A stretch of 64,000 bases of DNA, from assembly GCA_965208575.1 (NCBI GenBank), contig CBDBOV010000004.1, positions 1,280,001 to 1,344,000 of the forward strand, read 5' to 3'. Source of the DNA: Spirochaetia bacterium. Lineage in GTDB: Bacteria; Spirochaetota; Spirochaetia; SZUA-6; Bin103. A program made the position numbers and the translations under genes. Positions 14,728 to 48,884 of the stretch are shown here, piece after piece. How positions within the stretch are numbered: position 1 is the first letter of the stretch; each line of letters starts with the position of its first letter. The notes below the pieces were generated by a model. It searched no databases. It was not told where the DNA came from and was given only the letters and a program-made list of their open reading frames with translations.

Positions 14728-14750
14728 CTCGTCTTCACCTCTCTCCGGGA

Positions 14751-16664: not shown

Positions 16665-16839
16665 GGGCGCTACCTTACGGCCCCGCTCGGCGCAGCGTCA
16701 AACGATCAGCGCAGGCCGCGGCGCCGGCAGATCATGTCAGCAGCTTTCTCCCCGGTCGCAGTGGGGTCATCACACTCACGAGCCGGAAGCCACGCTCCTC
16801 GAAGTGCGGATCGAAAGCGAATGCCAGATCCTCCTTGGA

Positions 16840-16912
16840 TGGGCGATGACGGGCTCGAACCGCCGACCGCCTGGGTGTAAACCAGGTGCTCTACCATCTG
16901 AGCTAACCGCCC
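16840..16912 (-). tRNA. tRNA-Val(TAC)
   Basis: GGGCGGTTAGCTCAGATGGTAGAGCACCTGGTTTACACCCAGGCGGTCGGCGGTTCGAGCCCGTCATCGCCCA folds as a cloverleaf with anticodon TAC. Confidence 0.96.
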
Positions 16913-16938
16913 GCACGCGCTTTCGCAGCGCCCGCAGC

Positions 16939-16968
16939 AAGCTATCCATCGCGCGTGCGTCCTGTCAA
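16939..16968 (-). promoter_or_regulatory. tRNA promoter
   Basis: TTGACA-18 nt-TAGCTT upstream of the tRNA. Confidence 0.6.
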
Positions 16969-17088
16969 ACCGGCGCGCGTCCGTCGCACCCTCGCGGGGG
17001 CGAGCGGCGGATTCGACACCGTGTCCGATATTTCCCGGAGCCGGTGAACCCGTCCGCCTCCGGTGCCGAGCATAAGGATAGAACCTCC

Positions 17089-19686: not shown

Positions 19687-19770
19687 AACTCGGTTTCGAG
19701 TAGAACTCGGTTTCGAGCGACTTCAGTTTCCGGGTAGAACTCGGTTTCGAGCAGGGCTGGTTTCGAGTGA
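19681..19770. repeat. Degenerate tandem repeat, about 5 units of 16-18 bp
   Basis: GAGTAGAACTCGGTTTC twice exactly (19681-19714), then three degenerate units ending in GTTTC. Confidence 0.85.
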
Positions 19771-26104: not shown

Positions 26105-26144
26105 TATGCATAACCATGCAATTCAGTGCAACTTTATCCGCGAC

Positions 26145-27710
26145 CGTAAGCCGGGTGGCGGAGTCCCGGTGCCGTCCCTGCAGTGCCTCGGCGAGGCGAT
26201 TGCGGACCGCTGCCAGCCGGCTGCGTACCCGCCTGATGCTCTTTTCCAGGGCCCGGCGCACCGGTTCACGACCCGTGCGTCGGGCTCCGGCGGCGCAAGG
26301 TCATGGCTCGGCAGCGCGTCAAGGTTGAACTGCTCGCGCAGGTACTTGAAGAAGTTCTCCTGCGACCAGCGCGAGAACATGGCGCCGGCGACCTGCGCCA
26401 ACGGCATCTGCGGGTGCGTGGTGATCACCGCCACCTGACGACCGTTGGCCAGACGCCGCCGGATCTGGCGCACCACCAGCCCGTTGCGCAGCATGATCGG
26501 CTGCTCGGCCAGATCAACCGCAGTCGTGCTGGTGCCGGCGGGACCATGGATCGGTACCTCGAAGGTGTGGAAGTCTTCCGGCAGCCAGTCCGCGCCGTTG
26601 AAGTTCTTGTGCCAGGTGATGCAGGCGATGCCACGCCGGGCCAGGCGCTTGAACAGGTCCGGGCTCCAGCCCTCGCGGTCGAACACCAGGGTCAGCTGCG
26701 GGGTACCGGCCGGTGCTCCGGTCAGGTCGGGGGCCGCTTCGGTCACCACCCCCAGGTGCTGCAACTGCGGCACCACGTCGTGCTTGATCGCATTCACCGG
26801 CTTCGGGTCCAGCGCCTTGTGCAGGCACAGCAGCGGTGCGCCGCCGAGGGCGTTGATCCAGTAGCTCACCGACGCCGGCAGACACAGCTTCTGGCGTGCG
26901 ACGAAGTGTTTCGGCAACCGCCCGTTGCGCCCGGTGTACACCTTCACGTGGCCATCCACGGCCAGCGTCGTCCAGTCGTCGTCGTGCTCGCTGGCCCAGG
27001 TACGCGCCAGTACCGATTGCCAATCGCGCACGGTGTGCTCGGCGCTGGCCAGCAGCCTGATCTTGCGGCGCAGCGTCTTGGTCTCCGGACAGCGGTCGAG
27101 GCCGAGGATGGCGCCCCACTCGCCGGGTGCCTGGTAGCGCAGGCTCTCGGGGTTGCGCACCCGGGCCAGGGTCATGCAGGCGACGAACAGGAGGATGGTG
27201 GTCAGGCCGTAGAATCCGGCCGGCAGGCGGAACAGGCGGTTGGCGGCGGTGAGCAGGCCCTCGCGCAGCAGCATCGCCAGTGCGGCCAGCACGCCGCCGC
27301 CAGCGACCGCGTGGGCGGGCTCGACGAACGCTGGTGTGGCCTCGGTCAGCAGGCCGGCTCTGGCGAGCGTGCGGCGTTCCACGTCGCGCGCCGCGCGGCC
27401 CATGGGCGCGTGCTTGTCGCGGGCGTCGCGGCTGGCGCGCTCAGTGGCGACCGCCGGGTCGCTGACCGCGGCGGCGGTGCTGACCGGGTGATCAGTGGTG
27501 GTGGCCGCCGGCGCAACCTCGGCGCTGGCGGCGGGCTCCCGGGTGGGATCTGTGATGACGCCGGCGCGGCGGTTCTCGTTGAAGGTGCTCACCGGGATGC
27601 CGAGTTCGCGAGCGCAGGCTGAGCCGCTCATCCCGGAAGCGAGCAGCTTGGCTGCCTGGTCCGCCATCTCGGCGTCGTCCACGGTGGCCTCCACGGCACC
27701 GCGCCGGCTG
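26145..27710 (-). pseudogene. Truncated and frameshifted DDE (IS4-superfamily-like) transposase remnant
   Basis: LAVDGHVKVYTG, LVFDREGWS and FSRWSQENFFKY; frameshift near 26262 (VVN|PVRRALEK); no credible start, and the C-terminus runs into unrelated sequence. Confidence 0.75.
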
Positions 27711-28012
27711 ACTCCGGTCGGGCTACGCCCTCCGTCCGTCAGCGGGGTACAGCATCTCCTCCGCCCCGTTCGATCCCGACGGCTCCGGTGTCGCAACCTC
27801 GTCGCCTACCCCGTCCCGGCGGTGGGGAATTGTCATGACCCTGCCCCGGGCAACGCACCTCGGTGCAGTTGTCCGGGGCGCCTCGCTCCGTGCGCTCCGC
27901 AGCAACCTGCGCGCCGCTCGCGGCGTGGGCGGCATCACCCGGCTCGGCAAATGACTTCTGAGCGTCTCTGACGCCCGTATATCCGTGAGCCAGACGGTCG
28001 GCGTCAAGAAAT

Positions 28013-30708: not shown

Positions 30709-30794
30709 GCGTGCGACGGGACAGGCCGGAAACGGCCGTACTTCCTCACCTCCCGGAAACCGCAACCCGATCTGATCAGAACGAGGTAAATCCC

Positions 30795-33467
<2,673 letters not shown>

Positions 33468-33688
33468 CGGCGCGCCGGTAAGCGCCGCCGGCGTCATCGA
33501 CCGGCAGGCCCTTCGGCCTCGATGACCTGGCGATTCACCCGCCCAGCGGGTCGCACCCGGCCGGCGTGCGCACCGCCGTTGCCGTTGGCAGAGGCTGCCG
33601 GGGCATGTGCCGCCTCCACTCCCAGCTCCTGGTAACGGCACATTCGGGTCTACTGGAATGATCGGTCGAAGCATGGTATCCTGGCGCC

Positions 33689-34693
33689 ATGGCTGAGTAC
33701 CGCGCCGCCGCCGTGCCGCGCCCGGTCAGGCGCGCGACGCCGCCCTTGGAGTTTCCCGGCTGCCGGGCGGTGCGCATTGCGCGCGCCGACATCGAGCGCT
33801 GCGAACGCCGCATCGAGTACTGGGACGCCGCCACCGAGACCGCCATGATTTGCGATCCGGTCAGCGTCTACCACGAACACCCGGGCCAGCGCCTGCGCGA
33901 GCTCGCCACCCGCATCGCCCAGGTGCGCGGCTCGCCGATCGAGACGTTCGGCGCGGCCGACCTCCTGCTGCGCGATGCCGACGGCGCCTGGCGGCGCATC
34001 CTGGAGGCGGACCAGACCGTCTACCTGCACCCGCGCACCACGCGGCCACAAGGCGCCCGGATCGAAGTGGGCACCGACGCGCTGCCGGACGTGGTGCTGG
34101 AGGTGGACAACACCACCGACGTGCGCCGCGGCAAGCTGTCGCTGTACGAGTCGTGGGGCTTCCCGGAGGTGTGGGTGGAGGTGCCCGAGCAGTCCTCGCC
34201 GAGCCGCCCGGCGGCGCTGCGCCCCGGCCTGACGATCTACCTGCTCGAGGAAGGCCGCTTTCGCACCGCGCCCGCCAGCCGCGCCTTTGCGGGCTGGACG
34301 GCGGCGGAGATCCACCAAGCGCTGAACGAGCCGGAGCTGTCGGACGCCTCCATGGCCGTGTTGCGCAGCATCGGACGAACACTGGGCGCGGCGCTGGGAA
34401 CCGGTCCGGACGACGACCCGCTGCTGCGCACCGAGCGCCGGGAGAGTCGCGCCGAGGGCCTTGTCGCAGGCCGGACAGCGGGACACGCGGAAGGCCGGAC
34501 CGCGGCGCGCGCGGCGACGCAACGGGAGGCCGTCCTGCAGGTGTTGCAGTCGCGCGGCCTGCCGGTGTCCGCGGCGTTCCCCCGCCACCTGGCGCAATTG
34601 CAGGGCGTCTCCACCGCGGCATTGGTTCAGGCCGCGCTGGACTGCCGCGACGAGGACGACTTCCTGCGGCGGACTCGCACCAAACAACACTGA
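33689..34693 (+). CDS. Uma2-like (DUF820) PD-(D/E)XK nuclease, copy 1
   Basis: HE..., EADQTVY, PDVVLEVD, GKLxLYESWGFPEVWV; EG-type repeats and a helical C-terminal tail. Confidence 0.85.
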   Translation: MAEYRAAAVPRPVRRATPPLEFPGCRAVRIARADIERCERRIEYWDAATETAMICDPVSVYHEHPGQRLRELATRIAQVRGSPIETFGAADLLLRDADGAWRRILEADQTVYLHPRTTRPQGARIEVGTDALPDVVLEVDNTTDVRRGKLSLYESWGFPEVWVEVPEQSSPSRPAALRPGLTIYLLEEGRFRTAPASRAFAGWTAAEIHQALNEPELSDASMAVLRSIGRTLGAALGTGPDDDPLLRTERRESRAEGLVAGRTAGHAEGRTAARAATQREAVLQVLQSRGLPVSAAFPRHLAQLQGVSTAALVQAALDCRDEDDFLRRTRTKQH

Positions 34694-34957
34694 AGCGCCC
34701 GACGTTCAAGTGACCCGCTCGCGGCAGGCGCTGCGCTGAGTTCTCAGCACCGGCCCGCAGTCGAGCATCGTGGCAGAAGATGCCGCCACCCGAACGGCGG
34801 TACTGGACCGGCTGCCGCCGTTGCAGCGAGGCACGGCGCCACTCAACTTGCAACTGGGGAAGCACGAAGCGACGGCGACGACGCGGTAGCCCAGATCCCT
34901 TGTACCGCATAATCGGGTCTACTGGAATGATCGGTCGAACCGTGGTATCCTCGTGCC

Positions 34958-35938
34958 TTGGCTGAGTACCGTGCCGCCGCCGTGCCGCGCCCGGTCAGGC
35001 GCGCGACGCCGCGGTTGGAGTTTCCCGGCTGCCGGCCGGTGCGCATTACGCGCGCCGACATCGCCGACTACGAGCGCCGCATCGAGTACTGGGACGCCGC
35101 CACCGAGACCGCCATGGTGTGCGATCCGGTCAGCGTCTACCACGAACAACCGGGGCAAGCGTTGGCGCGGCTGCTCCAGACCATCGCCCACTTACGCGGC
35201 GCGCCCATTGCCACCTTCGGCGCCGCCGACCTCCTGCTGCGCGATGCCGACGGCGCCTGGCGGCGCATCCTGGAGGCGGACCAGACCGTCTACCTGCACC
35301 CGCGCACCACGCGGCCCCCGGGTGCCCGGATCGAAGTGGGCACCGACACGCTGCCGGACGTGGTACTGGAGGTGGACAACACCACCGACGTGCGCCGCGG
35401 CAAGCTGGCGCTGTACGAGTCGTGGGGCTTCCCGGAGGTGTGGGTGGAGGTGCCCGAGCAGTCCTCCCCGAGCCGCCCGGCGGGCCTGCGCCCCGGCCTG
35501 ACGATCTACCTGCTCGAGGAAGGCCGCTTTCGCACCGCGCCCGCCAGCCGCGCCTTTGCGGGCTGGACGGCGGCGGAGATCCACCAAGCGCTGAACGAGC
35601 CGGAGCTGTCGGACGCCACCATGGCCGTACTGCGCAGGATCGGACGAACGCTGGGTGCGGCGCTGGGAACCGGCCCGGACGACGACCCGCTGCTGCGCAC
35701 CGAGCGCCGGGAGAGTCGCGCCGAGGGCCATACAGCAGGCCGGACCGAGGCGCGCGCGGCGACACAGCGGGATGCCGTCCTGCAGGTGTTGCAGTCGCGC
35801 GGCCTGCCGGTGTCCGCGGCGTTCCCCCGCCACCTGGCGCGCTTGCAGGGCGTCTCCACCGCGGCGTTGGTAGAGGCCGCGCTGCACTGCCGCGACCAGG
35901 ACGACTTCCTGCGGCGGACTCGCCCGAAACAACACTGA
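34958..35938 (+). CDS. Uma2-like nuclease, copy 2 (TTG start)
   Basis: Paralogue of copy 1. Confidence 0.85.
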   Translation: MAEYRAAAVPRPVRRATPRLEFPGCRPVRITRADIADYERRIEYWDAATETAMVCDPVSVYHEQPGQALARLLQTIAHLRGAPIATFGAADLLLRDADGAWRRILEADQTVYLHPRTTRPPGARIEVGTDTLPDVVLEVDNTTDVRRGKLALYESWGFPEVWVEVPEQSSPSRPAGLRPGLTIYLLEEGRFRTAPASRAFAGWTAAEIHQALNEPELSDATMAVLRRIGRTLGAALGTGPDDDPLLRTERRESRAEGHTAGRTEARAATQRDAVLQVLQSRGLPVSAAFPRHLARLQGVSTAALVEAALHCRDQDDFLRRTRPKQH

Positions 35939-36014
35939 AGCGTCGGGCGTTCACGTGGCCCGCTCGCGGCAGGCGCTGAGTTCTCAGCATCGGCCGGTCA
36001 CCCAGCGCCGTGAC

Positions 36015-36254
36015 TCAGTAGCGGTACGTGGTCTTGAAATTCGCGGCGTGTTCGGGCAGGGAGTGCGCGCGCTCGCGCCGTTCTCCAGACAACTCGACGT
36101 CCAGGGCGGCTGACGACGCCCTGAAACGGGTGCCGAGCCGCACGTGGCTCGCGCCGTCGGCGAGCCCTGCCTCGGTGAAAGGCGTGAACACCCCCCACGG
36201 CGAGGCGAAACCATAGCCGATGCTCGCTTCGAGCGAACCGGTCTCGGCGCCCAT
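36015..36254 (-). pseudogene. C-terminal fragment resembling an autotransporter-type outer-membrane beta-barrel
   Basis: LEASIGYGF...VFTPFTEAGL...VRLGTRF...LDVELSGERRE...PEHAANFKTTYRY*: amphipathic strands and a terminal aromatic residue, with no N-terminal part. Confidence 0.55.
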
Positions 36255-36400
36255 GCTTGCCGTAACAGCGAGTTGCCGCGCCACTCCGCTGGCAACTGGG
36301 GGAAGCACGAAGCGACGGCGACGACCCGGTAACCCAGCTCCCGCGTACCGCATACTCGGGCCTGCTGGAATGATCGGTCGAGACATGGTATCCTCGTGCC

Positions 36401-37357
36401 ATGGCTGAGTACTGCGCCGCCGCCGTGCCGCGCCCGGTCAGGCGCGCGACGCCGCCCTTGGAGTTTCCCGGCTGCCGGGCGGTGCGTATTTCGCGCGACG
36501 ACCTCGAACGCTGCGAGCGCCGTATCGAGTACTGGGACGCCGCCACCGAGACCGCCATGATTTGCGATCCGGTCAGCGTCTACCACGAACACCCGGGCCA
36601 GCGCCTGCGCGAGCTGGCCACCCGCATCGCCCTGGTGCGCGGCTCGCCGATCGAGACGTTCGGCGCCGCCGACCTCCTGCTGCGCGATGCCGACGGCGCC
36701 TGGCTGCGCATCCTGGAGGCGGACCAGACCGTCTACCTGCACCCACGCACCACGCGGCCACCGGGCGCCAGGATCGAGGTGGGCAGCGACACGCTGCCCG
36801 ACGTGGTGCTGGAGGTGGACAACACCACCGACGTGCGCCGCGGCAAGCTGGCGCTGTACGAGTCGTGGGGCTTCCCGGAGGTGTGGGTCGAGGTGCCCGA
36901 GCAGTCCTCCCCAAGCCGCCCGGCGGGCCTGCGCCCCGGCTTGACGATCCACCTGCGGGAGGGCGGCGCTTTTCGCACCGCCGCGCACAGCCGGGCCTTC
37001 GCGGGCTGGACGGCGCCGGAAATCCACCGCGCGCTGAACGAGCCGGAGTTGTCGCACGCCACCCTGGCCGCGCTCCGGCGCGTGGGGCGCGCGCTCGGCG
37101 CGGCCGCGGGCACCGGGCCGGACGACGACCCGCAGATGCGCACCGAGCGCCGGGAAAGCCGCGCCGCGGGCCGGGTGGAGACACAGCGGGAGGCCGTGCT
37201 GCAGGTGCTGCAGTCGCGCGGCCTGCCGGTGTCCGCCGCGTTCCCGCGGCGCCTGGCGGAGTTGCAGCCCGTGTCCACCGCCGCACTGGTTCGGGCGGCT
37301 CTGGAGTGCCGCGACGAGGACGACTTCCTGCGGCGCACTGGCACGAAACAACACTGA
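36401..37357 (+). CDS. Uma2-like nuclease, copy 3
   Basis: Paralogue with a divergent 3' half. Confidence 0.85.
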   Translation: MAEYCAAAVPRPVRRATPPLEFPGCRAVRISRDDLERCERRIEYWDAATETAMICDPVSVYHEHPGQRLRELATRIALVRGSPIETFGAADLLLRDADGAWLRILEADQTVYLHPRTTRPPGARIEVGSDTLPDVVLEVDNTTDVRRGKLALYESWGFPEVWVEVPEQSSPSRPAGLRPGLTIHLREGGAFRTAAHSRAFAGWTAPEIHRALNEPELSHATLAALRRVGRALGAAAGTGPDDDPQMRTERRESRAAGRVETQREAVLQVLQSRGLPVSAAFPRRLAELQPVSTAALVRAALECRDEDDFLRRTGTKQH

Positions 37358-37416
37358 AGCGCCGGCGCACTCGATTCTACTGGAATGATCGGTCGAAGCT
37401 ATGGTACCCTCGTGCC

Positions 37417-38385
37417 GTGGCTGAGTACCGTGCCGCCGCCGTGCCGCGCCCGGTCAAGCGCGCGACGCCGCGGTTGGAGTTTCCCGGCTGCCGGCCGGTG
37501 CACATTGCGCGCGCCGACATTGAGCGCTGTGAGCGCCGCATCGAGTACTGGGACGCCGCCACCGAAACCGCGATGATTTGCGATCCGGTCAGCGTCTACC
37601 ACGAACATGCTGGGCAACGCCTACGCGAGTTGCTGACGCTGATTGCGCAGGTGCGAGGTTCGCCGATTGCTACTTTCGGCGCCGCCGACCTCTTGCTGCG
37701 CGATGCCGACGGCGCCTGGCGGCGCATCCTGGAGGCCGACCAGACCGTCTACCTGCACCCGCGCACCACGCGGCCACAAGGCGCCCGGATCGAAGTGGGC
37801 GCCGACACGCTGCCCGACGTGGTGCTGGAGGTGGACAACACCACCGACGTGCGCCGCGGCAAGCTGGCGCTGTACGAGTCGTGGGGCTTCCCGGAGGTGT
37901 GGGTGGAGGTGCCCGAGCGGTCCTCCCCGAGCCGCCCGGCGGGCCTGCGCCCCGGCCTGACGATCTACCTGCTCGAGGAAGGCCGCTTTCGCACCGCGCC
38001 CGCCAGCCGCGCCTTTGCGGGCTGGACGGCGGCGGAGATCCACCAAGCGCTGAACGAGCCGGAGCTGTCGGACGCCTCCATGGCCGTGTTGCGCAGGATC
38101 GGACGAGCGCTCGGTGCGCCCCTCGGCACCGGGCCGGACGACGACCCGCTGCTGCGCACCGAGCGCCGGGAAAGTCGCGCCGAAGGCCGGACCGAGGCGC
38201 GCGTGGAGACACAGCGGGAGGCCGTGCTGCAGGTGTTGCAGTCGCGCGGCCTGCCGGTCTCGGCGGCGCTTCCCCGCCACCTGGCGCAATTGCAGGGCGT
38301 CCCCACCGCCACGCTGGTAGAGGCCGCGCTGCGCTGCCGCGACGAGGACGACTTCCTCCGCCGGACTCGCACGAAACAACGCTGA
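37417..38385 (+). CDS. Uma2-like nuclease, copy 4 (GTG start)
   Basis: Paralogue; start set by homology. Confidence 0.85.
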   Translation: MAEYRAAAVPRPVKRATPRLEFPGCRPVHIARADIERCERRIEYWDAATETAMICDPVSVYHEHAGQRLRELLTLIAQVRGSPIATFGAADLLLRDADGAWRRILEADQTVYLHPRTTRPQGARIEVGADTLPDVVLEVDNTTDVRRGKLALYESWGFPEVWVEVPERSSPSRPAGLRPGLTIYLLEEGRFRTAPASRAFAGWTAAEIHQALNEPELSDASMAVLRRIGRALGAPLGTGPDDDPLLRTERRESRAEGRTEARVETQREAVLQVLQSRGLPVSAALPRHLAQLQGVPTATLVEAALRCRDEDDFLRRTRTKQR

Positions 38386-38540
38386 ACCGCCCGTATTCAA
38401 GCGGCCCGGCTCACGGCAGGCGCTGCGCTGCCATTGCCGATCCGCGTATTCGCGAACCCGTCGGTGAACGAGGAATGGGCTTGGGTGAGCCTATTCGGAC
38501 CTACTGGAATGATCGGTCGAGCCCGTTGTATCCTCGTGCC

Positions 38541-39521
38541 ATGGCTGAGTACCGCACTGCCGCCGTGCCGCGCCCGGTCAGGCGCGCGACGCCGCCCTTG
38601 GAGTTTCCCGGCTGCCGGCCGGTACCCATGTCGCGCAACGAGATCGAACACTGCGAGCGCCGTATCGAGTACTGGGACGCCACCACCGAGACCGCCATGA
38701 TTTGCGATCCGGTCAGCGTCTACCACGAACACGCTGGGCAACGCCTACGCGAGTTGCTGACGCTGATTGCGCAGGTGCGAGGATCGCCGATTGCTACTTT
38801 CGGCGCCGCCGACCTCTTGTTGCGCGATGCCGACGGCGCCTGGCGACGTATCCTGGAGGCCGACCAGACCGTCTACCTGCACCCGCGCACCACGCGGCCA
38901 CAAGGCGCCCGGATCGAAGTGGGCAGCGACACGCTGCCCGACGTGGTGCTGGAAGTGGACAACACCACCGACGTGCGCCGCGGCAAGCTGTCGCTGTACG
39001 AGTCGTGGGGCTTCCCGGAGGTGTGGGTCGAGGTGCCCGAGCAGTCCTCCCCGAGCCGCCCGGCGGGCCTGCGCCCCGGCTTGACGATCCACCTGCTGGA
39101 GGAGGGCGGCTTTCGCACCGCGCCCGCCAGCCGCGCCTTTCCGGGCTGGACGGCGGCTGAGATCCACCAAGCGCTGAACGAGCCGGAGCTGTCGGACGCC
39201 ACCATGGCCGTGTTGCGCGGCATCGGACGAACGCTTGGTGCAGCGCTGGGAACCGGCCCGGACGACGACCCGCTGCTGCGCTCCGAGCGCCGGGAAAGTC
39301 GTGCCGAGGGCCATGCAGCAGGCCGGACCGAGGCGCGCGCGGCGACACAGCGGGATGCCGTGCTGCAGGTGTTGCAGTCGCGCGGCCTGCCGGTGTCCGC
39401 GGCGCTTCCCCGCCACCTGGTGCAGTTGCAGGGCGTCTCCACCGCCACGCTGGTAGAGGCCGCGCTGCACTGCCGCGACGAGGACGACTTCCGCCGCCGG
39501 ACTCGCGGGAAGCAACGCTAA
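38541..39521 (+). CDS. Uma2-like nuclease, copy 5
   Basis: Paralogue; start set by homology. Confidence 0.85.
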   Translation: MAEYRTAAVPRPVRRATPPLEFPGCRPVPMSRNEIEHCERRIEYWDATTETAMICDPVSVYHEHAGQRLRELLTLIAQVRGSPIATFGAADLLLRDADGAWRRILEADQTVYLHPRTTRPQGARIEVGSDTLPDVVLEVDNTTDVRRGKLSLYESWGFPEVWVEVPEQSSPSRPAGLRPGLTIHLLEEGGFRTAPASRAFPGWTAAEIHQALNEPELSDATMAVLRGIGRTLGAALGTGPDDDPLLRSERRESRAEGHAAGRTEARAATQRDAVLQVLQSRGLPVSAALPRHLVQLQGVSTATLVEAALHCRDEDDFRRRTRGKQR

Positions 39522-39854
39522 ACCGCCGGTATTCAAGTGGCCCGGCTCACGGCAGGCGCTGCGCTGCCACTGCCGATCCGCGTATTCGCGAACCCGGGAA
39601 AGCAGGTACCTGCGCTTCCATCTCCACCGCGCGGTCCTGCACAATGGCATCCACCGTCCCGGATCGATAGATGCGCTCGGCAAGCAGACGATCATAGGCG
39701 CGGCTAAAGCCGCGGCAACCTGTCCTCGGACCCGGCACGCGCACATCCTGATCTATCCTGACAAGTCGGACACGTCGGTGAACGAGGAATGGGCTTGGGT
39801 GGGCCTATTCGAGCCTACTGGAATGATCGGTCGAAGCTATGGTATCCTCGTGCC

Positions 39855-40811
39855 ATGGCTGAGTACCGCGCCGCCGCCGTCCCGCGCCCGGTCAAACGCG
39901 AGATGCCGCCCTTGGAGTTTCCCGGCTGCCGGGCGGTGCGCATTGCGCGCGCCGACCTTGAACGCTGCGAGCGCCGCATCGAGTACTGGGACGCCGCCAC
40001 CGAGACCGCCATGGTGTGCGATCCGGTCAGCGTCTACCACGAACAACCGGGCCAGGTGTTGGCGAGGCTGCTCGGGACCATCGCGCACGTGCGCGGCGCG
40101 CCCATTGCCACCTTCGGCGCGGCCGACCTCCTGCTGCGCGATGCCGACGGCTCTTGGCGGCGCATCCTGGAGGCGGACCAGACCGTCTACCTGCACCCGC
40201 GCACCACGCGGCCACAAGGCGCCCGGATCGAAGTGGGCACCGACACGCTGCCGGACGTGGTGCTGGAAGTGGACAACACCACCGACGTGCGCCGCGGCAA
40301 GCTGGCGCTGTACGAGTCGTGGGGCTTCCCGGAGGTGTGGGTCGAGGTGCCCGAGCAGTCCTCCCCGAGCCGCCCGGCGGGCCTGCGCCCCGGCTTGACG
40401 ATCTACCTGCTGGAGCAAGGGAGCTTTCGCACCGCGCCGGACAGCCGCGCCTTTGCGGGCTGGACGGCGGCGGAGATCCACCAAGCGCTGAACGAGCCCG
40501 AGCTGTCGGCAGCCACCATGGCCGTGTTGCGCAGGATCGGACGAGCGCTGGGGGCGGCGCTGGGAACCGGGCCGGACGACGACCCACTGCTGCGCTCCGA
40601 GCGCCGGGAGAGTCGGATCGCAGGCCGCGTGGAAACACAGCGGGAGGCCGTGCTGCAGGTGTTGAAGTTGCGCGGCCTGCCGGTCTCGGCTGCGCTTTCC
40701 CGCCACTTGGCGCAGTTGCAAGGCGTCTCTACCGCGGCGTTGGTGGAGGCCGCGCTGCACTACCGCGACGAGGCCGACTTCCTGCGGCGCACTCGCAGCA
40801 AACAACGCTGA
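39855..40811 (+). CDS. Uma2-like nuclease, copy 6
   Basis: Paralogue; start set by homology. Confidence 0.85.
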   Translation: MAEYRAAAVPRPVKREMPPLEFPGCRAVRIARADLERCERRIEYWDAATETAMVCDPVSVYHEQPGQVLARLLGTIAHVRGAPIATFGAADLLLRDADGSWRRILEADQTVYLHPRTTRPQGARIEVGTDTLPDVVLEVDNTTDVRRGKLALYESWGFPEVWVEVPEQSSPSRPAGLRPGLTIYLLEQGSFRTAPDSRAFAGWTAAEIHQALNEPELSAATMAVLRRIGRALGAALGTGPDDDPLLRSERRESRIAGRVETQREAVLQVLKLRGLPVSAALSRHLAQLQGVSTAALVEAALHYRDEADFLRRTRSKQR

Positions 40812-41079
40812 AGCGCTGGTATTCAAGTGGCCCGGCTACTCGCGCGACGCCGCCGGAACGGAGGCCGATCGCTTGCTTGGAGTCCGTTAGCTCGCTATTC
40901 TATGCAACACGAAAGCGCGTTAGGGCGAGTTGGAGGTATGTCGATGAGTAGCCCCCAACCGAGCAGTGCGTCTCGGCGCCGAGATACAGTTCCACGTTGG
41001 TAACGAGGAATGGGGGCCCGGGCAAGCCTGCGCCAGCCGCCGCCGAGGCGGACGGCTGGCACACGACTCAGGACAAGCT

Positions 41080-41982
41080 TCAGGCCGAGTTGGCGAAGGC
41101 CTCCAGATGTTGGCTTCGGGAGGGGTGGCGCAGGCGGCGCAGGGCCTTCTTCTCGATCTGTCGGATGCGCTCCTTGGTGAGCGAGTAGCGCGAGCCGATC
41201 TCCTTCAGCGACAGCGGCTGCTTGCCGTTGAGGCCGAAGCGGCGCACGATGATGTCCGCTTCCTTCTCGGTGAGGGTGGCCAGCACCTTGTTGATCTGGT
41301 CCTTCAGCGCGCTGTCGTAGGCTTGGTCCTCGGGCGACTGGTACTCGGTGTCGGCCACGAAGTCGCCGATGCTGGAGGCGTCGCGGTCGGTCCCCACCGG
41401 GCTGTCGAGCGACACCAGGTCACGCGAGATGCTGACCAGCGACTCGACGTGCGCCGGGGCCATGTCCACTTCCTTCGCCACCGAGGCGAGGTTGGGCTCC
41501 GCGGAACGGTCGCCCTGCAACTGCTTGCGGGCCTTCTCGATCTGCACCAGCTCGTTGGCGCGGTTCAGCGGCAGGCGGATCATGCGCGACTTCTCGCACA
41601 CCGCCTTGAGGATCGCCTGGCGGATCCACCACACCGCGTAGGAAATGAAGTGGTATCCCTTGGTAACGTCGAAGCGCTCGACGGCGTTCATCAGGCCGAT
41701 GTTGCCCTCGCTGATCAGGTCGATCAGCGGCAGGCCCTGGTTCTGGTACTTCTTGGCGACGTTGACCACGAAGCGCAGGTTGGCCCGTACCAGGTGTTCC
41801 TTGGCGGCTTCATCGCCGTCGCGGGCACGGGTGGCCAGGTCGACTTCCTGCTCGCGGGTGAGCAGCGGTATCCGGTTGATGTCGCGCAGGTACAACGACA
41901 GCACGCTGTCGTCGCCACTGTCCGTGGTGGAGCGCTGCCGGGTGACGGACTTACGCGCACTGGTAGATTTCCTCTGAGGCAT
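41080..41982 (-). CDS. Group-2 (RpoS-like) sigma70-family factor lacking region 1.1
   Basis: LYLRDI, ANLRFVVNVAKKY, DLISEGNIGL, FISYAVWWIRQ, ERIRQIEKKALRRLRH. Confidence 0.92.
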   Translation of the reverse strand: MPQRKSTSARKSVTRQRSTTDSGDDSVLSLYLRDINRIPLLTREQEVDLATRARDGDEAAKEHLVRANLRFVVNVAKKYQNQGLPLIDLISEGNIGLMNAVERFDVTKGYHFISYAVWWIRQAILKAVCEKSRMIRLPLNRANELVQIEKARKQLQGDRSAEPNLASVAKEVDMAPAHVESLVSISRDLVSLDSPVGTDRDASSIGDFVADTEYQSPEDQAYDSALKDQINKVLATLTEKEADIIVRRFGLNGKQPLSLKEIGSRYSLTKERIRQIEKKALRRLRHPSRSQHLEAFANSA

Positions 41983-43421: not shown

Positions 43422-45986
43422 CTGCCCGCCCGACTCGTCCGCTGCCGTCCCCTCGAACCCGAGGAACTCGCGCACCCGGTCCACCAGTTCCGCCCCCGGC
43501 GCGGTTTCCAGGCGTACGTCCGGCAGCGAGCGCAGAAACGCCGCCCCGTAGCTCTTGCGTGCCAGCCGCACGTCGAGGAACAGCACCACGCCGCGGTCGT
43601 CGTGCCGCCGGATCAGGCGGCCGAACCCCTGCCGCACGCGCATCACGGCGCGCGGCAGCGTGAGCGCCAGGAACGGGTCGGCGCCGCTCTGCGCCACCCG
43701 CGCCATCTGTGCCGCGGCCACCGGGTGGCTCGGAACCGAGAACGGCAGGCGGCAGATCACCACCAGGCTGAGCGCTTCGCCCGGCGCGTCGATGCCCTCC
43801 CAGAACGAATCGGTTGCCAGCAGCACGCTCGCGGTGTCGCCGCGGAACCGGTCCAGCAGGCGGTGGCGGTCGTCGTCGCCCTGGCGCAGGACGGTGATGC
43901 CGGCGGCCGCCAGCGGTTCCTGGAGCTGGCGAAACGAACGGTCCAGCATCGCGTACGAGGTGAACAGCACCAACGCCCGCCCGCGGCTGGCGCGCAGCAC
44001 CGCGACCAGGTAGCGGCCGAGCCACGCCTGGTGTTCGGCGGCGGTGGGCTCCGGGGCATCGATCGGGATGCCGGCCAGCGCCTGCTCCCGGTACGCGAAC
44101 GGCGACGGATACTGCTCGGTGAATACCGGCCGCGAGGTGACCTCGGCCAGCCCCACCCGCCCGCACCAGAACCCGAAGTCGCCGGCAACGGTCAGCGTCG
44201 CCGAGGTCAGCACCACGCTCGGATAGCGGTCGAAAATCGCCGCCCGCATCAGCGGCGCCACCTCCACCGGTGTCACCACGAGCCGCGCCGCCGCCGTGCC
44301 GTCGCGGCGGCGGAAACCCTCCACCCAGCGCACGGCGTTGCCCGCCAGTTGGCCATCCGCGCGTGCCGGCACGCTGCCCAGGCGCTCGCACAGCCCGGCG
44401 GCGGCGCGCATGCGGCGCGCCTGAATACGCAGTTCCACCGCATCGGCGTCATCGCGGTCCGCCGGCTCGGCGGCATCCAGCGCCGCCGACACCGCACCGG
44501 CGAGGCTCGCCAGCGTTGCCCCGGTCGCCTCCAGCGTTTCCACCAGGCCGCGGTCGCCCGGCACGTCCAACACCGCCGCCGGTTCGCCGACGAGCTGGCG
44601 CGCGGCGGCGCGCTCCAGCCGGCCGGCCAGGCGGCGCAACTGTTCCACCTGCGCCACTACCGCGCCCAGATCTCGGCCGGCGCCGATGAACCAGTCAGCG
44701 CGGCGCGGCACCAGCCCGTGTTGCCCGCCGAGTCGTCCGCCACGGCTGCCGCCGAGTCGTCCGCCACGGCTGCCGCCGTGGCGGGCGCTGACCAGCCGGC
44801 CGGCAAGTCGTTCCAGCCCGGTGCGCGCGAGCCGCTGCGAAAAGAACGAGGCGGCGTTGCTCTCGATGGCGTGCGCTTCGTCGAACACGATGCGCCGGAA
44901 CCCCGGCAGCACGGCCGCGCTGGCCAGGGCTTCGCGCCCGCCGCCGCCCGCCAGGCGGATCGCCAGGTCGGCGAACAGCAGGTGGTGGTTCACCACCAGC
45001 AGGCGTGCCGCCGCCGCCTCGCGGCGGGCGCGCAGCACGAAGCACGCCTCCCGGTCGGGGCAGCGCAGCGCGTTGCAGGCATCGCCCTCCGAACACACCA
45101 AGTCCCAGGTGGCGCCGGCGGTCGCAAACGGCAGGTCGCTGCGGCTGCCGGTGGGGCTGGCCAGCGACCACTCGTAGATGGCGCGCACCTCGGCGGCGGC
45201 GTGTGGGTCGAGCGCACCCTCCGCGATGGCCGCGGGCAGGCCCTGCGCGTCGGCATGCACCTCGCGCAGGCGGCGCAGACACAGGTAGTTGCCGCGCCCC
45301 TTGACCAGGCAGCTCTTCACGTCGGTGCCGAGCATGCGCTGCACCAGGGGCAGATCCTGCGCCATGAGCTGCTGCTGCAGGTTGATGGTGGCCGTGGACA
45401 CCACCACCCGCTCGTCGTTGGCGTCCGCCCACGCCACCGCCGGTACCAGGTAGGCGAGCGACTTGCCGATGCCGGTGCCCGCCTCGGCCGCCACGATCAC
45501 CTCGTCGTTGAACGCGTCGCATGCCGCCTGCAGGAGCGAGACCTGGCCCGCCCGCTGCTCGAACCCCGGGTGCAGCCGGTGCAGGGCGCCGCCCGCGCGC
45601 AGCGTGGCGGCCAGCGCGCGCGTGTCGAGCGGCCTGCGCTCGCGGCGCGGCGCCGGTTCGGCGACCACGTAGATGCGCGACACCGCATTGTCGACGATGC
45701 AGAACCCCTTGCCCTGGTCGCCCACCCAGCCGGCGACGGCGAGGTCCGCCTCGCTCGGCTGCAGCAGTCCCGAGGGATGGTTGTGAATCAGCAGGTCGGC
45801 GCCGTCGACGTAGGGGGCGAGTACCGGCACTTCGCGGTCGTTGCCGCGCGCGGCGATGGTCACGCTGCGCACCAGGCCGCCGGTATCGCAGTTGCCGACG
45901 CAGAACACCTCGCGGCCATCCGCCTCCGCGATGGCGTCGCGCAGCGTGCCGGCCGCCGCCGGCGTAAACCAGGCGCCGATCTCCAT
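43401..45986 (-). CDS. DinG/YoaA-family helicase with an N-terminal JAB (RadC-like) domain
   Basis: E...IHNHPSG..QPSEAD JAB motif; EAGTGIGKS, KGRGNYLC, FeS cysteines, DEAH, FWEGID, QGFGRLIR. Confidence 0.9.
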   Translation of the reverse strand: MEIGAWFTPAAAGTLRDAIAEADGREVFCVGNCDTGGLVRSVTIAARGNDREVPVLAPYVDGADLLIHNHPSGLLQPSEADLAVAGWVGDQGKGFCIVDNAVSRIYVVAEPAPRRERRPLDTRALAATLRAGGALHRLHPGFEQRAGQVSLLQAACDAFNDEVIVAAEAGTGIGKSLAYLVPAVAWADANDERVVVSTATINLQQQLMAQDLPLVQRMLGTDVKSCLVKGRGNYLCLRRLREVHADAQGLPAAIAEGALDPHAAAEVRAIYEWSLASPTGSRSDLPFATAGATWDLVCSEGDACNALRCPDREACFVLRARREAAAARLLVVNHHLLFADLAIRLAGGGGREALASAAVLPGFRRIVFDEAHAIESNAASFFSQRLARTGLERLAGRLVSARHGGSRGGRLGGSRGGRLGGQHGLVPRRADWFIGAGRDLGAVVAQVEQLRRLAGRLERAAARQLVGEPAAVLDVPGDRGLVETLEATGATLASLAGAVSAALDAAEPADRDDADAVELRIQARRMRAAAGLCERLGSVPARADGQLAGNAVRWVEGFRRRDGTAAARLVVTPVEVAPLMRAAIFDRYPSVVLTSATLTVAGDFGFWCGRVGLAEVTSRPVFTEQYPSPFAYREQALAGIPIDAPEPTAAEHQAWLGRYLVAVLRASRGRALVLFTSYAMLDRSFRQLQEPLAAAGITVLRQGDDDRHRLLDRFRGDTASVLLATDSFWEGIDAPGEALSLVVICRLPFSVPSHPVAAAQMARVAQSGADPFLALTLPRAVMRVRQGFGRLIRRHDDRGVVLFLDVRLARKSYGAAFLRSLPDVRLETAPGAELVDRVREFLGFEGTAADESGGQKKSPSH

Positions 45987-46168
45987 CGGGCGCCGGTCGC
46001 CGCTCCTTCTCATCCGTCCTGGCTCCTGGCGCGCATCGGGTGCTGGCACTCTATGGCGTGCGCTGGCCATAGACAAGCTCCTACAGAGCGTGGACACACG
46101 GCCGCGCGGACGCACCGGTGTTGACCCGGACGGCGCCGGCATAGTACTCATAGCGCTACATCACAGGA

Positions 46169-46338
46169 TCAGTAGAGGAGCGGCCTCCAGGAGTAGGCCC
46201 GGCGGATGGTTGGATGCTAGGTCGCCGGGAGCGCCGAAAGGGGCGGGCCGCCGAAGCGGATGGCCGCCAACCCGGCCGTCGCTGGTTGCCGGGGCTAAAT
46301 CCCCGGGACTGTCACCCGCTGCGGGTGGAGCGCTCTGA
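46169..46338 (+). ncRNA. Lysine riboswitch (L-box)
   Basis: AGAGGAGC...AGTA...GAAAGGG...GCCGAA...CTGG...GACTGTC...GGAGCGCT in canonical order, with P1 TCAG/CTGA, upstream of lysine biosynthesis genes. Confidence 0.92.
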
Positions 46339-46419
46339 GGCCTGTCTCCGGTGTGGCGAGCCCGCCGCGCCTCCCGCCCGCAGCGAACGCACCCACGATC
46401 CGAAAGCGAGGTGCTCAAG

Positions 46420-47538
46420 ATGGCACGTATTCCGGTTGCCGTGGTCGGCGCCACCGGCATGGTGGGACAACGCATAATCGCCATGCTCGACGGTCATCCC
46501 CAATTCGAACTGCGCGAGGTCGCCTCCTCGGCACGCACCGCGGGCAAGCGATACGGCTCCGCCGCCACCTGGCGCGTGCCGGCGGCGATGCCGGACGGAG
46601 TGGGCGGCATGAGGCTCAAGGAAGGCGGCAGCCGGCTCGACAGCGGCGTCGTTTTTTCCGCCATGCCGGGCGGGCCGGCGACCGCCATCGAGCGCGCCTA
46701 CGCCGCCGCCGGCAAGGTCGTGGTGAGCAACTCCAGCAGCTACCGGATGGACCCCCGTGTGCCGCTGGTGATTCCGGAGGTCAACGCCGATCACCTGCAA
46801 CTGGTGCGCAGCCAGGGAACGCCGGGCGGGATCGTCACCAACTGCAACTGCGCCGCCATGTTTCTGACCATGGTGCTGGCCCCGCTGCACCGCCGCTACG
46901 GCGTCGAGGCGGTGCAGGTCACCACCATGCAGGCGGTGTCCGGCGCCGGCTATCCCGGTGTCGCCAGCCTCGACATCCTCGGCAACGTGTTTCCGCTGCC
47001 GGGCGAAGAGGAAAAGATCGAACGCGAGACCCAGAAGATGCTCGGCTCCGTGGCCGGCGGCGTGGTCACCCCGGCGTCGTTCCCGGTGAGCGCGCAGTGC
47101 CAGCGGGTGCCGGTCGAGGACGGCCACACCGAGACCGTGTCGGTGCGCCTGTCCGGCAACCCGGATGCCGGCGACGTCGCGGCCGCGCTGCGCGACTTCC
47201 GCGCCATGCCGCAGGTACAGGGGCTGTACAGTGCCCCGCCGCGCCCCATCGAGGTGTTCGAACAGGAGGACCGCCCGCAGCCGCGGCTGGATGCCAACCG
47301 GCACGGCGGCATGGCCGCATCGGTGGGCCGCATCCGCGCCTGCCCGGTGTTCACGGTGAAGATGCTCGTGCTCGGGCACAACCTGATGCGCGGCGCCGCC
47401 GCGGCCGCCATGCTGAACGCCGAGGCGATGCTGGCCATGGACCTGCTGCCTCCGCGGCCGGCGGCGGCCACGACATCCCATGCGGAGGCCACGGAGGCCG
47501 GCGTCGGGGCCGCCATGCAGGTGCCGGCGAACGCATGA
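46420..47538 (+). CDS. asd: Aspartate-semialdehyde dehydrogenase
   Basis: VGATGMVGQR, PEVNADHL, TNCNC, QAVSGAGYPG, GHNLMRGAA. Confidence 0.95.
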   Translation: MARIPVAVVGATGMVGQRIIAMLDGHPQFELREVASSARTAGKRYGSAATWRVPAAMPDGVGGMRLKEGGSRLDSGVVFSAMPGGPATAIERAYAAAGKVVVSNSSSYRMDPRVPLVIPEVNADHLQLVRSQGTPGGIVTNCNCAAMFLTMVLAPLHRRYGVEAVQVTTMQAVSGAGYPGVASLDILGNVFPLPGEEEKIERETQKMLGSVAGGVVTPASFPVSAQCQRVPVEDGHTETVSVRLSGNPDAGDVAAALRDFRAMPQVQGLYSAPPRPIEVFEQEDRPQPRLDANRHGGMAASVGRIRACPVFTVKMLVLGHNLMRGAAAAAMLNAEAMLAMDLLPPRPAAATTSHAEATEAGVGAAMQVPANA

Positions 47539-48884
47539 CCGTGATGAAGTTCGGAGGCTCCTCGCTGGCAACGGCGGAGCTTCTGGACCACGCCATCGGG
47601 ATCGCCGCCGGCGCGCTGGCGGACGGCGTCGTGCTGGTGGCTTCCGCCATGGGCGACACCACCGACCGGCTGCAACAGATCGCCAGCCTTGCCGGGGAGG
47701 GCGAGCGGGACGCCGCCGGCCAGGAGGTCGCGCGCCTGGAACGGGAGCACCGCCGGACTGCCCGTGAGTTGCTGGGGGGCACCGCCGCCGGCGCCACCGC
47801 GGAGGACCAGCTCGGCGAGCTGTTCGGCGAGTTGCGCGCCATCGTGACCGGCATGGGGCTGCTGCGCCAGTGGACGCCGCGCAGCAACGACGCCGTGCTT
47901 GGCTTCGGGGAGCGCGCGGTCACCGTGCTGCTGGCCGCACGCGCGCGGAAGCGCGGCATCGACGCCCGCCTGCTCGACAGCCGTGAGCTCATCGTGAGCG
48001 ACGACCGGTTCATGCAGGCCAAAGTCCGCCAGCCGGAGACCGCCGAGCGCATCCGCCGCCGCGGCCGGCCCGCAGCCGGGCAGATGCTGGTCGCGCAGGG
48101 CTTCATCGCCGCCACCGGGGATGGCATCGACACCACCCTCGGGCGCGGCGGCTCCGACTATACGGCCACCCTGTTCGGTGCCGCCCTCGGGGCAACCGAG
48201 GTGACGATCTGGACCGACGTTACCGGCATCATGAGCAGCGACCCCCGCCTGGTGCCGGCGGCGCGCACGCAGCCGTGTATCAGTTACCGGGAGGCGGCCG
48301 AGATGGCCTACTTCGGCGCCCGCGTCATTCACCCCGCCACCATTCAGCCGGCGGTACGGGGCGGCGTCCCGGTTTCGGTACGGAACTCGTGCGAGCCGGA
48401 GGAGGCGGGCACGCGTATCGCAGCCGACGCCGCACCCGGCGTCAAGGCGATCGCCTGCAAGCGCGGCATCACCCTGATCAACGTCACCTCGTCGCGGATG
48501 CTGCTGGCGTACGGATTCCTGCGCCGCATCTTCGAGATCTTCGAACATCACCGCACGCCGGTGGACCTGGTCGCCACCTCCGAGGTGTCGGTATCGATGA
48601 CCATCGACGACGCCGCCCACCTGGATGCCATCGCCGCCGATCTCGCCGAAGTCGGCGCGGTCAACATCGACCGCGACGCCAGCCTGGTGTCGATCGTGGG
48701 CCAGGACCTGTGGGCGCAGCCCGGCTTTCTCGGCACCGCCGTCAGCGCGCTCGACGGAGTGCCGCTGAAGATGATGTGCCTGGGGTCCTCCGACATCAAC
48801 CTTTCGCTGGTGGTGGCCGATGCCGCCACCGAGACCGCGGTGCGGTCCTTGCACCGCCGCTTTTTCGAGGCCTCACCATGCTGA
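47535..48884 (+). CDS. lysC: Aspartate kinase
   Basis: MKFGGSS, TLGRGGSDYT, WTDVTGI, ACT domains (TSEVSVS). Confidence 0.95.
   Translation: MTVMKFGGSSLATAELLDHAIGIAAGALADGVVLVASAMGDTTDRLQQIASLAGEGERDAAGQEVARLEREHRRTARELLGGTAAGATAEDQLGELFGELRAIVTGMGLLRQWTPRSNDAVLGFGERAVTVLLAARARKRGIDARLLDSRELIVSDDRFMQAKVRQPETAERIRRRGRPAAGQMLVAQGFIAATGDGIDTTLGRGGSDYTATLFGAALGATEVTIWTDVTGIMSSDPRLVPAARTQPCISYREAAEMAYFGARVIHPATIQPAVRGGVPVSVRNSCEPEEAGTRIAADAAPGVKAIACKRGITLINVTSSRMLLAYGFLRRIFEIFEHHRTPVDLVATSEVSVSMTIDDAAHLDAIAADLAEVGAVNIDRDASLVSIVGQDLWAQPGFLGTAVSALDGVPLKMMCLGSSDINLSLVVADAATETAVRSLHRRFFEASPC

Follow-up and report, generated by a model that had tools for sequence, protein, structure and literature searches.

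Why does a bacterium keep six closely similar, predicted nuclease genes side by side, all of them intact, and what is the meaning of the segments in which they differ? This question is posed by a stretch of 64,000 nucleotides (nt) of DNA from a Spirochaetia bacterium (GenBank assembly GCA_965208575.1, contig CBDBOV010000004.1, positions 1,280,001 to 1,344,000 of the forward strand), here called the window, in which six Uma2-related paralogues (copies 1 to 6, or c1 to c6) follow one another between positions 33689 and 40811. The array was noticed in an initial annotation made from the sequence and its open reading frames (ORFs), which described a mosaic of nuclease genes with swappable blocks. 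We are highly confident of the anatomy and of the evolutionary pattern: the array grew by tandem duplication of a gene together with its spacer, gene conversion homogenises the greater part of each gene within the genome, a block of ~24-40 codons for the exposed face of a core helix stays as three old types that are common to other genomes, and the number of four-residue units (tetrads) in the C-terminal tail changes in steps of 12 base pairs (bp). The wider reading, in which the copies would be six separately promoted, two-module, toxin-like nucleases, i.e. a self-inhibited Uma2 panel resembling the Rpn nucleases, is more tentative, and we put its probability at roughly 45%.

Predicted nuclease core, hinge and tetrad-repeat tail

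All six copies lie on the forward (+) strand, head to tail as originally described, with homologous starts and stops; none is broken. They are copy 1 (33689-34693, 334 amino acids (aa), ATG start), copy 2 (34958-35938, 326 aa, TTG start), copy 3 (36401-37357, 318 aa, ATG start), copy 4 (37417-38385, 322 aa, GTG start), copy 5 (38541-39521, 326 aa, ATG start) and copy 6 (39855-40811, 318 aa, ATG start), i.e. intact frames of 318-334 aa. Searching the 64-kb window with copy 2 (tblastn) returned exactly these six genes and no seventh copy or fragment. The proteins of c2-c6 are 87-92% identical to that of c1, and at the nucleotide level the copies share 85.4-93.1% identity (954 ungapped columns, of which 226 vary and 96 are informative for parsimony). 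The G/C content at third codon positions (GC3) of the whole genes is 0.86-0.92, similar to the neighbouring genes. The core quoted in the initial annotation (EADQTVY...PDVVLEVDNTTDVRRGKLxLYESWGFPEVWVEVP) is indeed invariant or nearly so across the copies, and the N-terminal block that it singled out (aa 27-38) differs in each of the six.

Uma2 (PF05685) is the only Pfam family matched by the six copies, at 17.2-23.5 bits and hence below the gathering score of 27 bits. It matches 71/74 and 122/148 relatives, with a best E of 6.5e-10, and is the only family that recurs among them; one relative (in locus L004) reaches 29.9 bits and lies above the cut-off. The proposed Uma2 membership is therefore best regarded as a probable and distant one, and the profile evidence supports placing the six copies within the Uma2 fold. 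The sole sequence match in the PDB is 9y1l_A (E 0.016), whose PD...E...K residues align with D108, E138 and K149 (HMMER). None of these three residues, nor H62-E63, varies among the six copies, and in 74 relatives their conservation is 90% or more; the PD...E...K arrangement of the PD-(D/E)XK fold is present in every copy. Module 1 (~aa 40-215) is accordingly predicted to be a divergent Uma2-type PD-(D/E)XK nuclease with intact catalytic residues E63, D108, E138 and K149.

The family is large: 3517 proteins match at E≤1e-3 among the 8000 candidates scored, and clusters at 50% identity number 893 at E≤1e-3 and 244 at E≤1e-30. The closest matches carry the names 'Spirochaetaceae bacterium' hypothetical proteins from metagenome-assembled genomes (MAGs) or 'Uma2 family endonuclease'. 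A scan of genome contigs (590 stretches matched) confirmed at least six related loci among the matches listed; of these, one belongs to a Spirochaetia MAG (L001) and five to MAGs of Vicinamibacterales or Acidobacteria.

Between the nuclease and the tail stands the hinge GTGPDDDP (aa 237-244; e.g. 34397-34420 in copy 1), which is near-invariant in 121 relatives and far more conserved than the residues around it; it could be a cleavage or docking site. What follows the hinge was overlooked in the initial annotation and is the most telling feature of these proteins, namely a tail that opens with tetrad repeats. All length differences between the copies are multiples of 4 aa and fall in one place, after 'ESRAEG'. 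We defined the linker as the residues that separate P(D/E)DDP from the helix behind it (AVLQVL..RG); of 120 listed proteins, 87 showed both anchors (the other 33 were not counted), five of the 87 being the window's own. The linker is a multiple of 4 aa in 6/6 copies and in 81/82 other family proteins, over a range of 12-52 aa. In the array it measures 36 aa in copy 1 (34421-34528, DDDP to AVLQVL, with a 24-bp tandem repeat in two copies at 34468-34514), 28 aa in copy 2 (35690-35773), 20 aa in copy 3 (37133-37192), 24 aa in copy 4 (38149-38220), 28 aa in copy 5 (39273-39356) and 20 aa in copy 6 (40587-40646), all on the + strand. The unit is (R/H)(A/T)(E/K)G, encoded in 12 bp, and in the full copy of L001 it appears as a 12-bp tandem repeat of 10.8 units with 90% match. 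Glycine-every-fourth-residue (GX3) repeats of this kind also account for the Pfam Yae1_N (deca-GX3) matches of 12/74 and 11/148 relatives, for a spurious weak match to FliH, in the absence of anything meaningful from NCBIfam for the six copies, and for the name 'FliH' that one source gives to a fragment.

Behind the tetrads lies a conserved segment of ~55 aa. A co-variation scan based on mutual information with average-product correction (203 rows, effective number of sequences (Neff) 117) yielded the intradomain pairs 67-109, 286 with 325, 324, 315 and 322, and 282-322; the co-varying pairs of the tail fit a small helical bundle. Module 2 (~aa 245 to the end) is therefore best described as a predicted small helical tail whose first helix opens with a variable number of (R/H)xEG tetrads. 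In the distant relatives of loci L003-L006 the same order recurs, with (RAEG)n followed by a different tail that is nevertheless homologous (hhalign of the two tail alignments, probability 97.9%, E 5e-13, a score raised by the shared hinge and repeats). Databases hold 44 matches to tail-only ORFs of 60-177 aa, which may be fragments.

Each copy is preceded by the same invariant 17-nt element, CTGGAATGATCGGTCGA, on the + strand: at 33653-33669 before copy 1, 34922-34938 before copy 2, 36365-36381 before copy 3, 37380-37396 before copy 4, 38504-38520 before copy 5 and 39818-39834 before copy 6. The element occurs exactly six times in the window, a number reached in 0/100 shuffles, and its 15-nt core also precedes the first copy of L001. 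It is non-coding, since a one-base insertion or deletion shifts the frame between copies. A TANNNT hexamer ending 6 nt before the start is found in 6/6 copies compared to 6/35 other genes (taken at their longest-ORF starts), and a Shine-Dalgarno-like motif in 0/6 copies. The 17-nt element and the following TGG-TATCCT look promoter-like, with a -35-like TGGAAT, a 17-nt spacer and an extended -10; the -10-like hexamer of copy 4, TACCCT, is weaker. From this arrangement we infer that each copy is probably transcribed separately and leaderless, in which case copies 2 (34958) and 4 (37417) may be poorly translated. A generic promoter scan reported no canonical sigma-70 promoters or terminators at the gene starts and left the 17-nt sites unflagged. 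The conserved 5' and 3' flanks gave no sign of an RNA element, with nothing in Rfam, no covariation and folding z-scores of -0.5 to +1.3.

Recombination among the copies and three helix types

The initial annotation had sorted the helix after the His-Glu pair into three classes, and our alignment reproduces them. Over codons 63-86, class A is found in copies 1 (33875-33946) and 3 (36587-36658), class B in copies 2 (35144-35215) and 6 (40041-40112), and class C in copies 4 (37603-37674) and 5 (38727-38798), all blocks being read on the + strand. Class C has AT-richer codons, as had been noted: GC3 over codons 63-93 is 0.65 in c4 and 0.68 in c5, compared to 0.84-0.97 in the other copies, and outside the helix block it is 0.87-0.92 in every copy. 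This low GC3 hints at an import of the class C block from a source of lower G/C content.

The claim that blocks reassort independently was borne out by several tests that agree with each other, and recombination among the six copies is statistically solid. A statistic of the pairwise homoplasy index (PHI) type, computed on the 96 informative sites, lay below all 5000 permutations of site order for windows of 5 and 10 sites and below all 2000 permutations for a 20-site window. The Hudson-Kaplan minimum number of recombination events (Rmin) was 32, a figure that leans upwards at this divergence. Breakpoints were placed by dynamic programming with parsimony over all 105 six-taxon topologies, by which the tree length falls from 170 steps to 154, 147 and 140 with two, three and four breakpoints. 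The gain was matched in 0/200 permutations for two to six breakpoints and in 2/200 for a single one, and the breakpoints, which the initial annotation had asked for, exceed chance by far. Codons 54-86 give the tree ((1,3),(2,6),(4,5)); the trees of other segments differ. GENECONV-like shared tracts that no permutation matched (0/2000) connect c1 and c4 (alignment nt 541-679), c2 and c4 (510-657), c1 and c3 (142-214) and c4 and c5 (193-240); a further tract links c1 and c2 (541-657, p 0.001), and none of the remaining ten pairs has a significant tract.

How old are the helix types? Nonsynonymous (dN) and synonymous (dS) divergence among the copies was estimated by the Nei-Gojobori method. In the helix block (codons 63-86) dS is ~1.0 and saturated, dN 0.24 and dN/dS 0.24, and in the core (codons 87-183) the corresponding values are 0.12, 0.017 and 0.14. 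The ratio is 0.66 for the first 40 codons, 0.77 for the repeat region and 0.31 for the whole gene. All of these lie below 1, so the selection suspected from the intact frames is confirmed as purifying selection. With a dS near 1 and a dN/dS of 0.24 the helix differences are old rather than fast, and rapid positive selection is unsupported. The core is near-invariant even at silent sites (dS 0.12), which points to gene conversion in addition to purifying selection.

Other genomes tell the same. In an alignment of 121 family rows (the six window copies and 115 others) 38 helices are A-like, 40 B-like and 22 C-like; three rows have a fourth kind of helix and 18 fall outside the class pattern. L001 (70% protein identity) is the only two-copy related locus for which DNA was at hand, and all comparisons between genomes at the DNA level are those of the window with this locus. 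Its two copies adjoin, class B first and class A second. In the helix block, dS from the L001 B copy is 0.46 to c2 and 0.37 to c6 compared to 0.71 to its own neighbour, and the L001 A copy is nearest to c1 (dS 0.49) and c3 (0.38). In the flanks of the block the relation is reversed, with a dS of 0.09 between the two L001 copies and of 0.29-0.59 between L001 and the window. Accordingly, the helix-block tree (120 nt) unites class B (support 99/98) and grouping by genome is rejected (p 0.0018, approximately unbiased (AU) test), whereas the flank tree (300 nt) has each genome as a clade (100/100) and a grouping by class fails (p 1.7e-57 and 8.6e-55). The flanks have evolved in concert, around a helix island that is protected from this process. 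The helix alleles are hence not products of local diversification, as had been suggested; they are old, conserved types common to other genomes. Several helix classes also co-reside in 6/6 other contigs with at least two family clusters (membership of the same contig was inferred).

The variable positions are not scattered over the helix. Across the 121 rows Q67, L69, L72, I76, A77 and R80 are invariant or nearly so and positions 64, 68, 70, 71, 73-75, 78 and 79 are variable; the entropy periodicity of the block is strongest at 100 degrees per residue, the value of an alpha-helix. Between classes, the proportions of nonsynonymous (pN) and synonymous (pS) differences are 0.51 and 0.48 for codons of the exposed face compared to 0.03 and 0.81 for the other codons of the block, and within a class, between genomes, pN of the helix is 0.04-0.12 and pS 0.29-0.36. 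The types thus appear to differ on one face of an amphipathic helix and to be conserved each in itself, which fits an interaction surface. Since the helix directly follows the catalytic His-Glu, it is probably the core helix of the PD-(D/E)XK fold, a placement derived from the range of the Pfam alignment and general knowledge of this fold.

The 3' halves of the genes reveal how helix and tail have been combined. That of copy 3 is the most divergent (dS 0.40-0.57 to the other copies, codons 184-256), as the initial annotation had seen when it described this copy as allele A joined to a distinct 3' half; the implied role of copy 3 as the odd chimera is not upheld. In its 3' half, copy 3 falls into one clade with 15 proteins from other genomes that are of class A (99.6 in the Shimodaira-Hasegawa-like approximate likelihood ratio test, SH-aLRT), and its nearest rows are all class A. 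The 3' half of copy 1 is nearest to c2 (class B) and c4 (class C), with 96-97% identity over residues 184-256 at ranks 1 and 2 of 120, and copy 1 shares significant tracts with both; for these reasons copy 3 looks like a congruent gene of the A lineage and copy 1 like the chimera, its class-A helix being joined to a 3' half of the kind seen in c2 and c4. A position of c1 beside the class-A clade in the 3' half is compatible with the AU test (p 0.418). Full agreement of the four helix classes with a FastTree phylogeny of the 3' half of the 121 rows would take 3 changes, and at least 20 are required; reassortment of helix and tail thus extends throughout the family.

The spacers between the copies (59-462 bp) record part of the history of the array. 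Those before c1, c2 and c3 have sequence in common (85% over 142 nt when the c1-c2 spacer is compared to the c2-c3 spacer) and those before c5 and c6 share another one (96% over 75 nt); the c3-c4 spacer has only 59 bp. A 62-bp piece of the c1-c2 spacer (34767-34828, + strand) matches a segment inside the ppdK gene (32577-32638) at 85% identity and in the same orientation. It appears to be what remains of an old duplication, or import, in which neighbouring DNA was carried along, and because of it the early duplication unit may have comprised such DNA. A relic ORF on the reverse strand of the c2-c3 spacer (36015-36386), with a shorter version in the c1-c2 spacer (34857-34937), ends in ...NFKTTYRY, which by eye resembles the C-terminus of an outer-membrane beta-barrel; neither Pfam nor NCBIfam recognises it, and the window lacks a full-length version.

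Proposed mechanism and its rivals

By analogy with the Rpn toxins (compared in the last section) we propose that the tail might be a self-association and inhibitory module which, for pairing in register, would require the same number of tetrads in its partner. If pairing occurs only at equal tetrad number, copies with different numbers would be insulated from one another. The helix type could offer a further surface of specificity, towards a partner, trigger or substrate, and the six copies (A/36, B/28, A/20, C/24, C/28, B/20) would then be six separately addressed nucleases that might serve abortive-infection-type defence or addiction. The most far-reaching version, an 'antitoxin inside toxin' Uma2 design with two independent address codes (tetrad number and helix surface) that gene conversion reshuffles into a mutually insulated abortive-infection panel, seems unlikely to us.

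A considerable number of observations weigh against such a panel. None of the six copies matches PF04754, the family of the Rpn nuclease, which E. coli RpnA itself matches at 1.6e-91, and hhalign of our family against RpnA gave a probability of 0.1. Two tail profiles reached only E 0.14 and 0.73 against the RpnA tail; the first aligns QVLKSRGLPVSA with KIMLESGVPLADI of RpnA, as one would do by eye, and the match is not significant. Nor did a search with the tail profile recover 7th0_A, the structure of the RpnA tail (PDB 7TH0). The Pfam model of DUF4351 (PF14261) detects 0/74 and 0/148 relatives and 0/6 isolated tails. A protein language model does associate residues 228-322 of an 81%-identical homologue with this family (23 of the 30 named look-alike clusters are DUF4351, score 0.91), a result at the level of a lead, given that shuffled proteins reach 0.9 in 4-10 of 100 cases. 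Among related whole-protein clusters, likewise language-model leads, Uma2 is accompanied by DUF4351 in 15% and by HTH_Rpn_C in 14% of members. An internal start of the Rpn kind is not evident, as an in-frame Met222 exists in only 65% of the 121 rows and no Shine-Dalgarno-like or -10-like motif was seen before it in the aligned DNA of the copies. Non-ATG starts, as in c2 (TTG) and c4 (GTG), would weaken leaderless translation. The array sits among housekeeping genes and outside any defence island, its proteins show no match to plasmids, phages or PHROGs, and PADLOC offers weak matches of 5/6 copies to the candidate PDC-S17 (E 4e-4 to 0.013). The helix face has no convincing co-varying partner (best pair at rank 162, z 3.3), in a scan of limited power (Neff 117). 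Finally, length alone cannot insulate all six copies because c2 and c5 as well as c3 and c6 share their tetrad numbers, and by our own arithmetic six unique combinations of class and length are expected by chance in ~60% of cases.

Could ordinary concerted evolution, with no specificity code at all, produce the same picture? In that case the helix types would be old paralogue lineages whose divergence leaves no identical stretch from which gene conversion could start and so blocks it locally, the tetrads would drift by slippage, and the proteins would be 'solo toxins', selfish Uma2 cassettes or housekeeping nucleases. We regard this as possible, on balance doubtful. It is compatible with dN/dS values below 1 everywhere and no positive selection shown, with a helix face that co-varies with no other region, with the housekeeping genes flanking the locus and with the high chance of obtaining six unique class/length combinations. 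However, it does not account well for helices that are conserved within a class across genomes (pN far below pS) and that have their invariant residues on one face and their variable residues on the other; for both reasons the types look like maintained functional variants rather than decay. Nor would it predict several classes together in each of the six other multi-copy contigs, or the retention of catalytic residues and upstream element in all six copies, and the multiple-of-4 rule, which holds in 81/82 relatives, shows that the tetrad register is under constraint.

The opposite view is close to that of the initial annotation, i.e. an actively diversifying repertoire in which recombination keeps making new specificities, as in antigenic variation or diversity-generating systems. 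Recombination is indeed frequent, the helix class changes at least 20 times on the 3'-half tree and the foreign-looking GC3 of class C suggests import, so a recombining array with a variable surface helix stands. The creation of helix alleles on the spot does not: the same few types recur nearly unchanged in other genomes, which speaks for a shuffling of old modules instead of new creation. Moreover, the region contains no invertase, reverse transcriptase or other diversifying enzyme, and tblastn found no silent or partial cassettes in the window. We consider continuing diversification quite improbable. An assembly artefact, with dispersed or fewer copies wrongly joined into a six-copy array, has to be considered for ~1-kb repeats of 85-93% identity, which can confuse assemblers. 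Yet the copies differ at 226 of 954 sites and are separated by distinct spacers that hold relics of their own, and six different, intact, in-frame genes are for this reason unlike a collapse or a chimera. The proteins of the window lie on a contig of 1,387,874 bases, and relatives also have adjacent copies (L001) or several family proteins per contig. An artefact is, in our estimate, very improbable indeed. Of the mechanistic readings, the self-inhibited Uma2 panel is the best supported.

Surroundings and relation to known systems

The array is flanked by ppdK (30711-33467) on one side and by a divergently oriented gene of the sigma-70 family (41080-41982) on the other, and its wider surroundings are of a housekeeping nature (UvrD, PPDK, GroES, a DinG/YoaA-like helicase and the asd-lysA-dapF genes). 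The asd-lysA-dapF run (46351-51030) is directly preceded by a lysine riboswitch (Rfam RF00168, 65.3 bits; 46165-46343, + strand). The DinG/YoaA-like helicase gene contains a perfect 24-bp tandem repeat (2.2 copies, 44725-44778) that doubles an eight-residue Gly/Arg-rich stretch, and a 17-bp tandem repeat (5.3 copies with 74% matches, 19680-19768) lies just after an ammonium transporter gene. A tRNA-Val gene (anticodon TAC, 16840-16912, reverse strand) falls inside the longest-ORF prediction of an MscS-like gene (16642-18264), which therefore probably starts further downstream. The window also carries four transposase genes (372-1208, 6533-8251, 24706-25980 and 26123-27796), of rve/IS3-like, IS1634-family (NCBIfam 2.6e-80), rve-domain and Transposase_29 kinds, which probably represent the 'decaying island' of the initial annotation; none of them touches the array. 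The copies themselves have no terminal inverted repeats, only short GC-rich inverted matches as expected by chance, and no transposase domain, the marks of an insertion sequence or transposon.

Conserved neighbours were not found across the six related loci. In L001 the gene pair adjoins RHH-PemK and PIN genes (upstream), an integrase and a CRISPR array. The second copy of this pair shares 8 nt with the first and breaks off behind 'PDVVLEVD', where DNA with a tyrosine integrase interrupts it (11076-11543 and 11676-12875). The CRISPR array (13567-16644) has a 61-bp period and a 28-nt repeat with the consensus GGTCTATCCCCGCGTGGGCGGGGAAACC.

According to the accessible parts of the literature, Uma2/DUF820/COG4636 is a lineage-specific expansion with paralogue cassettes and no assigned function, for which a role as solo toxin has been proposed (PMC2701414, PMC1274311, PMC3424549). 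Expansions into cassettes of such predicted nucleases have been on record for about two decades (PMC1274311, PMC2701414), and Uma2 paralogue cassettes, noted in 2009, are as such nothing new. The copies share with this family the fold by profile, the acidic and Lys catalytic positions and the occurrence as paralogue cassettes. They differ in scoring below the Pfam cut-off, in their length of ~320-330 aa compared to a Uma2 profile of 172 positions, in the additional tetrad-repeat tail and in a host that, by the names of the homologues, appears Spirochaetia-like instead of a cyanobacterium or Thermus. The tail calls to mind the GX3 repeats that pair helices in Yae1-Lto1 and also occur in dimeric FliH, as the consulted text of PMC4523923 describes. 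A Gly at every fourth residue of a helix used for helix-helix pairing is common to both; the likeness is one of motif only, the number of units varies here between paralogues, and the proteins are otherwise unrelated. DUF4351 proteins, i.e. RpnS-like stand-alone tails, resemble our tails as language-model look-alikes, and one DUF4351 cluster also has Yae1_N repeats, whereas the Pfam model matches no relative or isolated tail.

The tetrad-repeat tail makes the Rpn proteins the nearest known analogue. These are toxic PD-(D/E)XK nucleases (Zhong et al. 2023, PMC10400941; commentary PMC10400984). As these two sources describe, an internal start allows their C-terminal domain to be produced on its own, too, in the form of a small protein. 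This tail dimerises and consists of three helices, the long first one of which contains four-residue repeats in highly variable number, and the long form is neutralised only by a tail of matched repeat number. According to the same sources one plasmid Rpn system protects against phages, rpn arrays arise from tandem duplication without transposon ends, and variation of the repeats would block inhibition in trans among co-resident rpn copies (PMC10400941, PMC10400984). The literature, as far as covered (subscription journals lay outside), contained nothing linking Uma2 with DUF4351, Rpn tails or phage-defence experiments.

Should the subfamily work like Rpn, the 'gene within a gene' principle would extend beyond a single family of nucleases, and Uma2 cassettes would gain a concrete, testable model. 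The array would also be a natural case in which gene conversion homogenises paralogues while a surface-coding island and the repeat register stay different, and a clean system for learning how co-resident toxin paralogues avoid cross-talk. If both address codes were true, the long-unexplained Uma2 paralogue cassettes would be explained.

The parallels between the array and the Rpn(L/S) system are several: a PD-(D/E)XK nuclease to which a small, predicted helical module is attached at the C-terminus; four-residue repeats (units of 12 bp) in the first tail helix, in numbers that differ even among close relatives; and tandem arrays without transposon ends, in variable genomic context and with stand-alone tail-only ORFs, possibly fragments, in databases. 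There are also differences. The nuclease is of the Uma2 type (PF05685) and not of the Transposase_31 type (PF04754) found in Rpn, with no detectable sequence similarity in either module, and the copies have a long N-terminal extension, the GTGPDDDP hinge and no evident internal start. The core-helix types add a second variable element, of which we found no description for Rpn in the accessible part of PMC10400941. Uma2 cassettes and Rpn tetrads are each in print; their combination in this array suggests a Uma2-based variant of the Rpn-type design.

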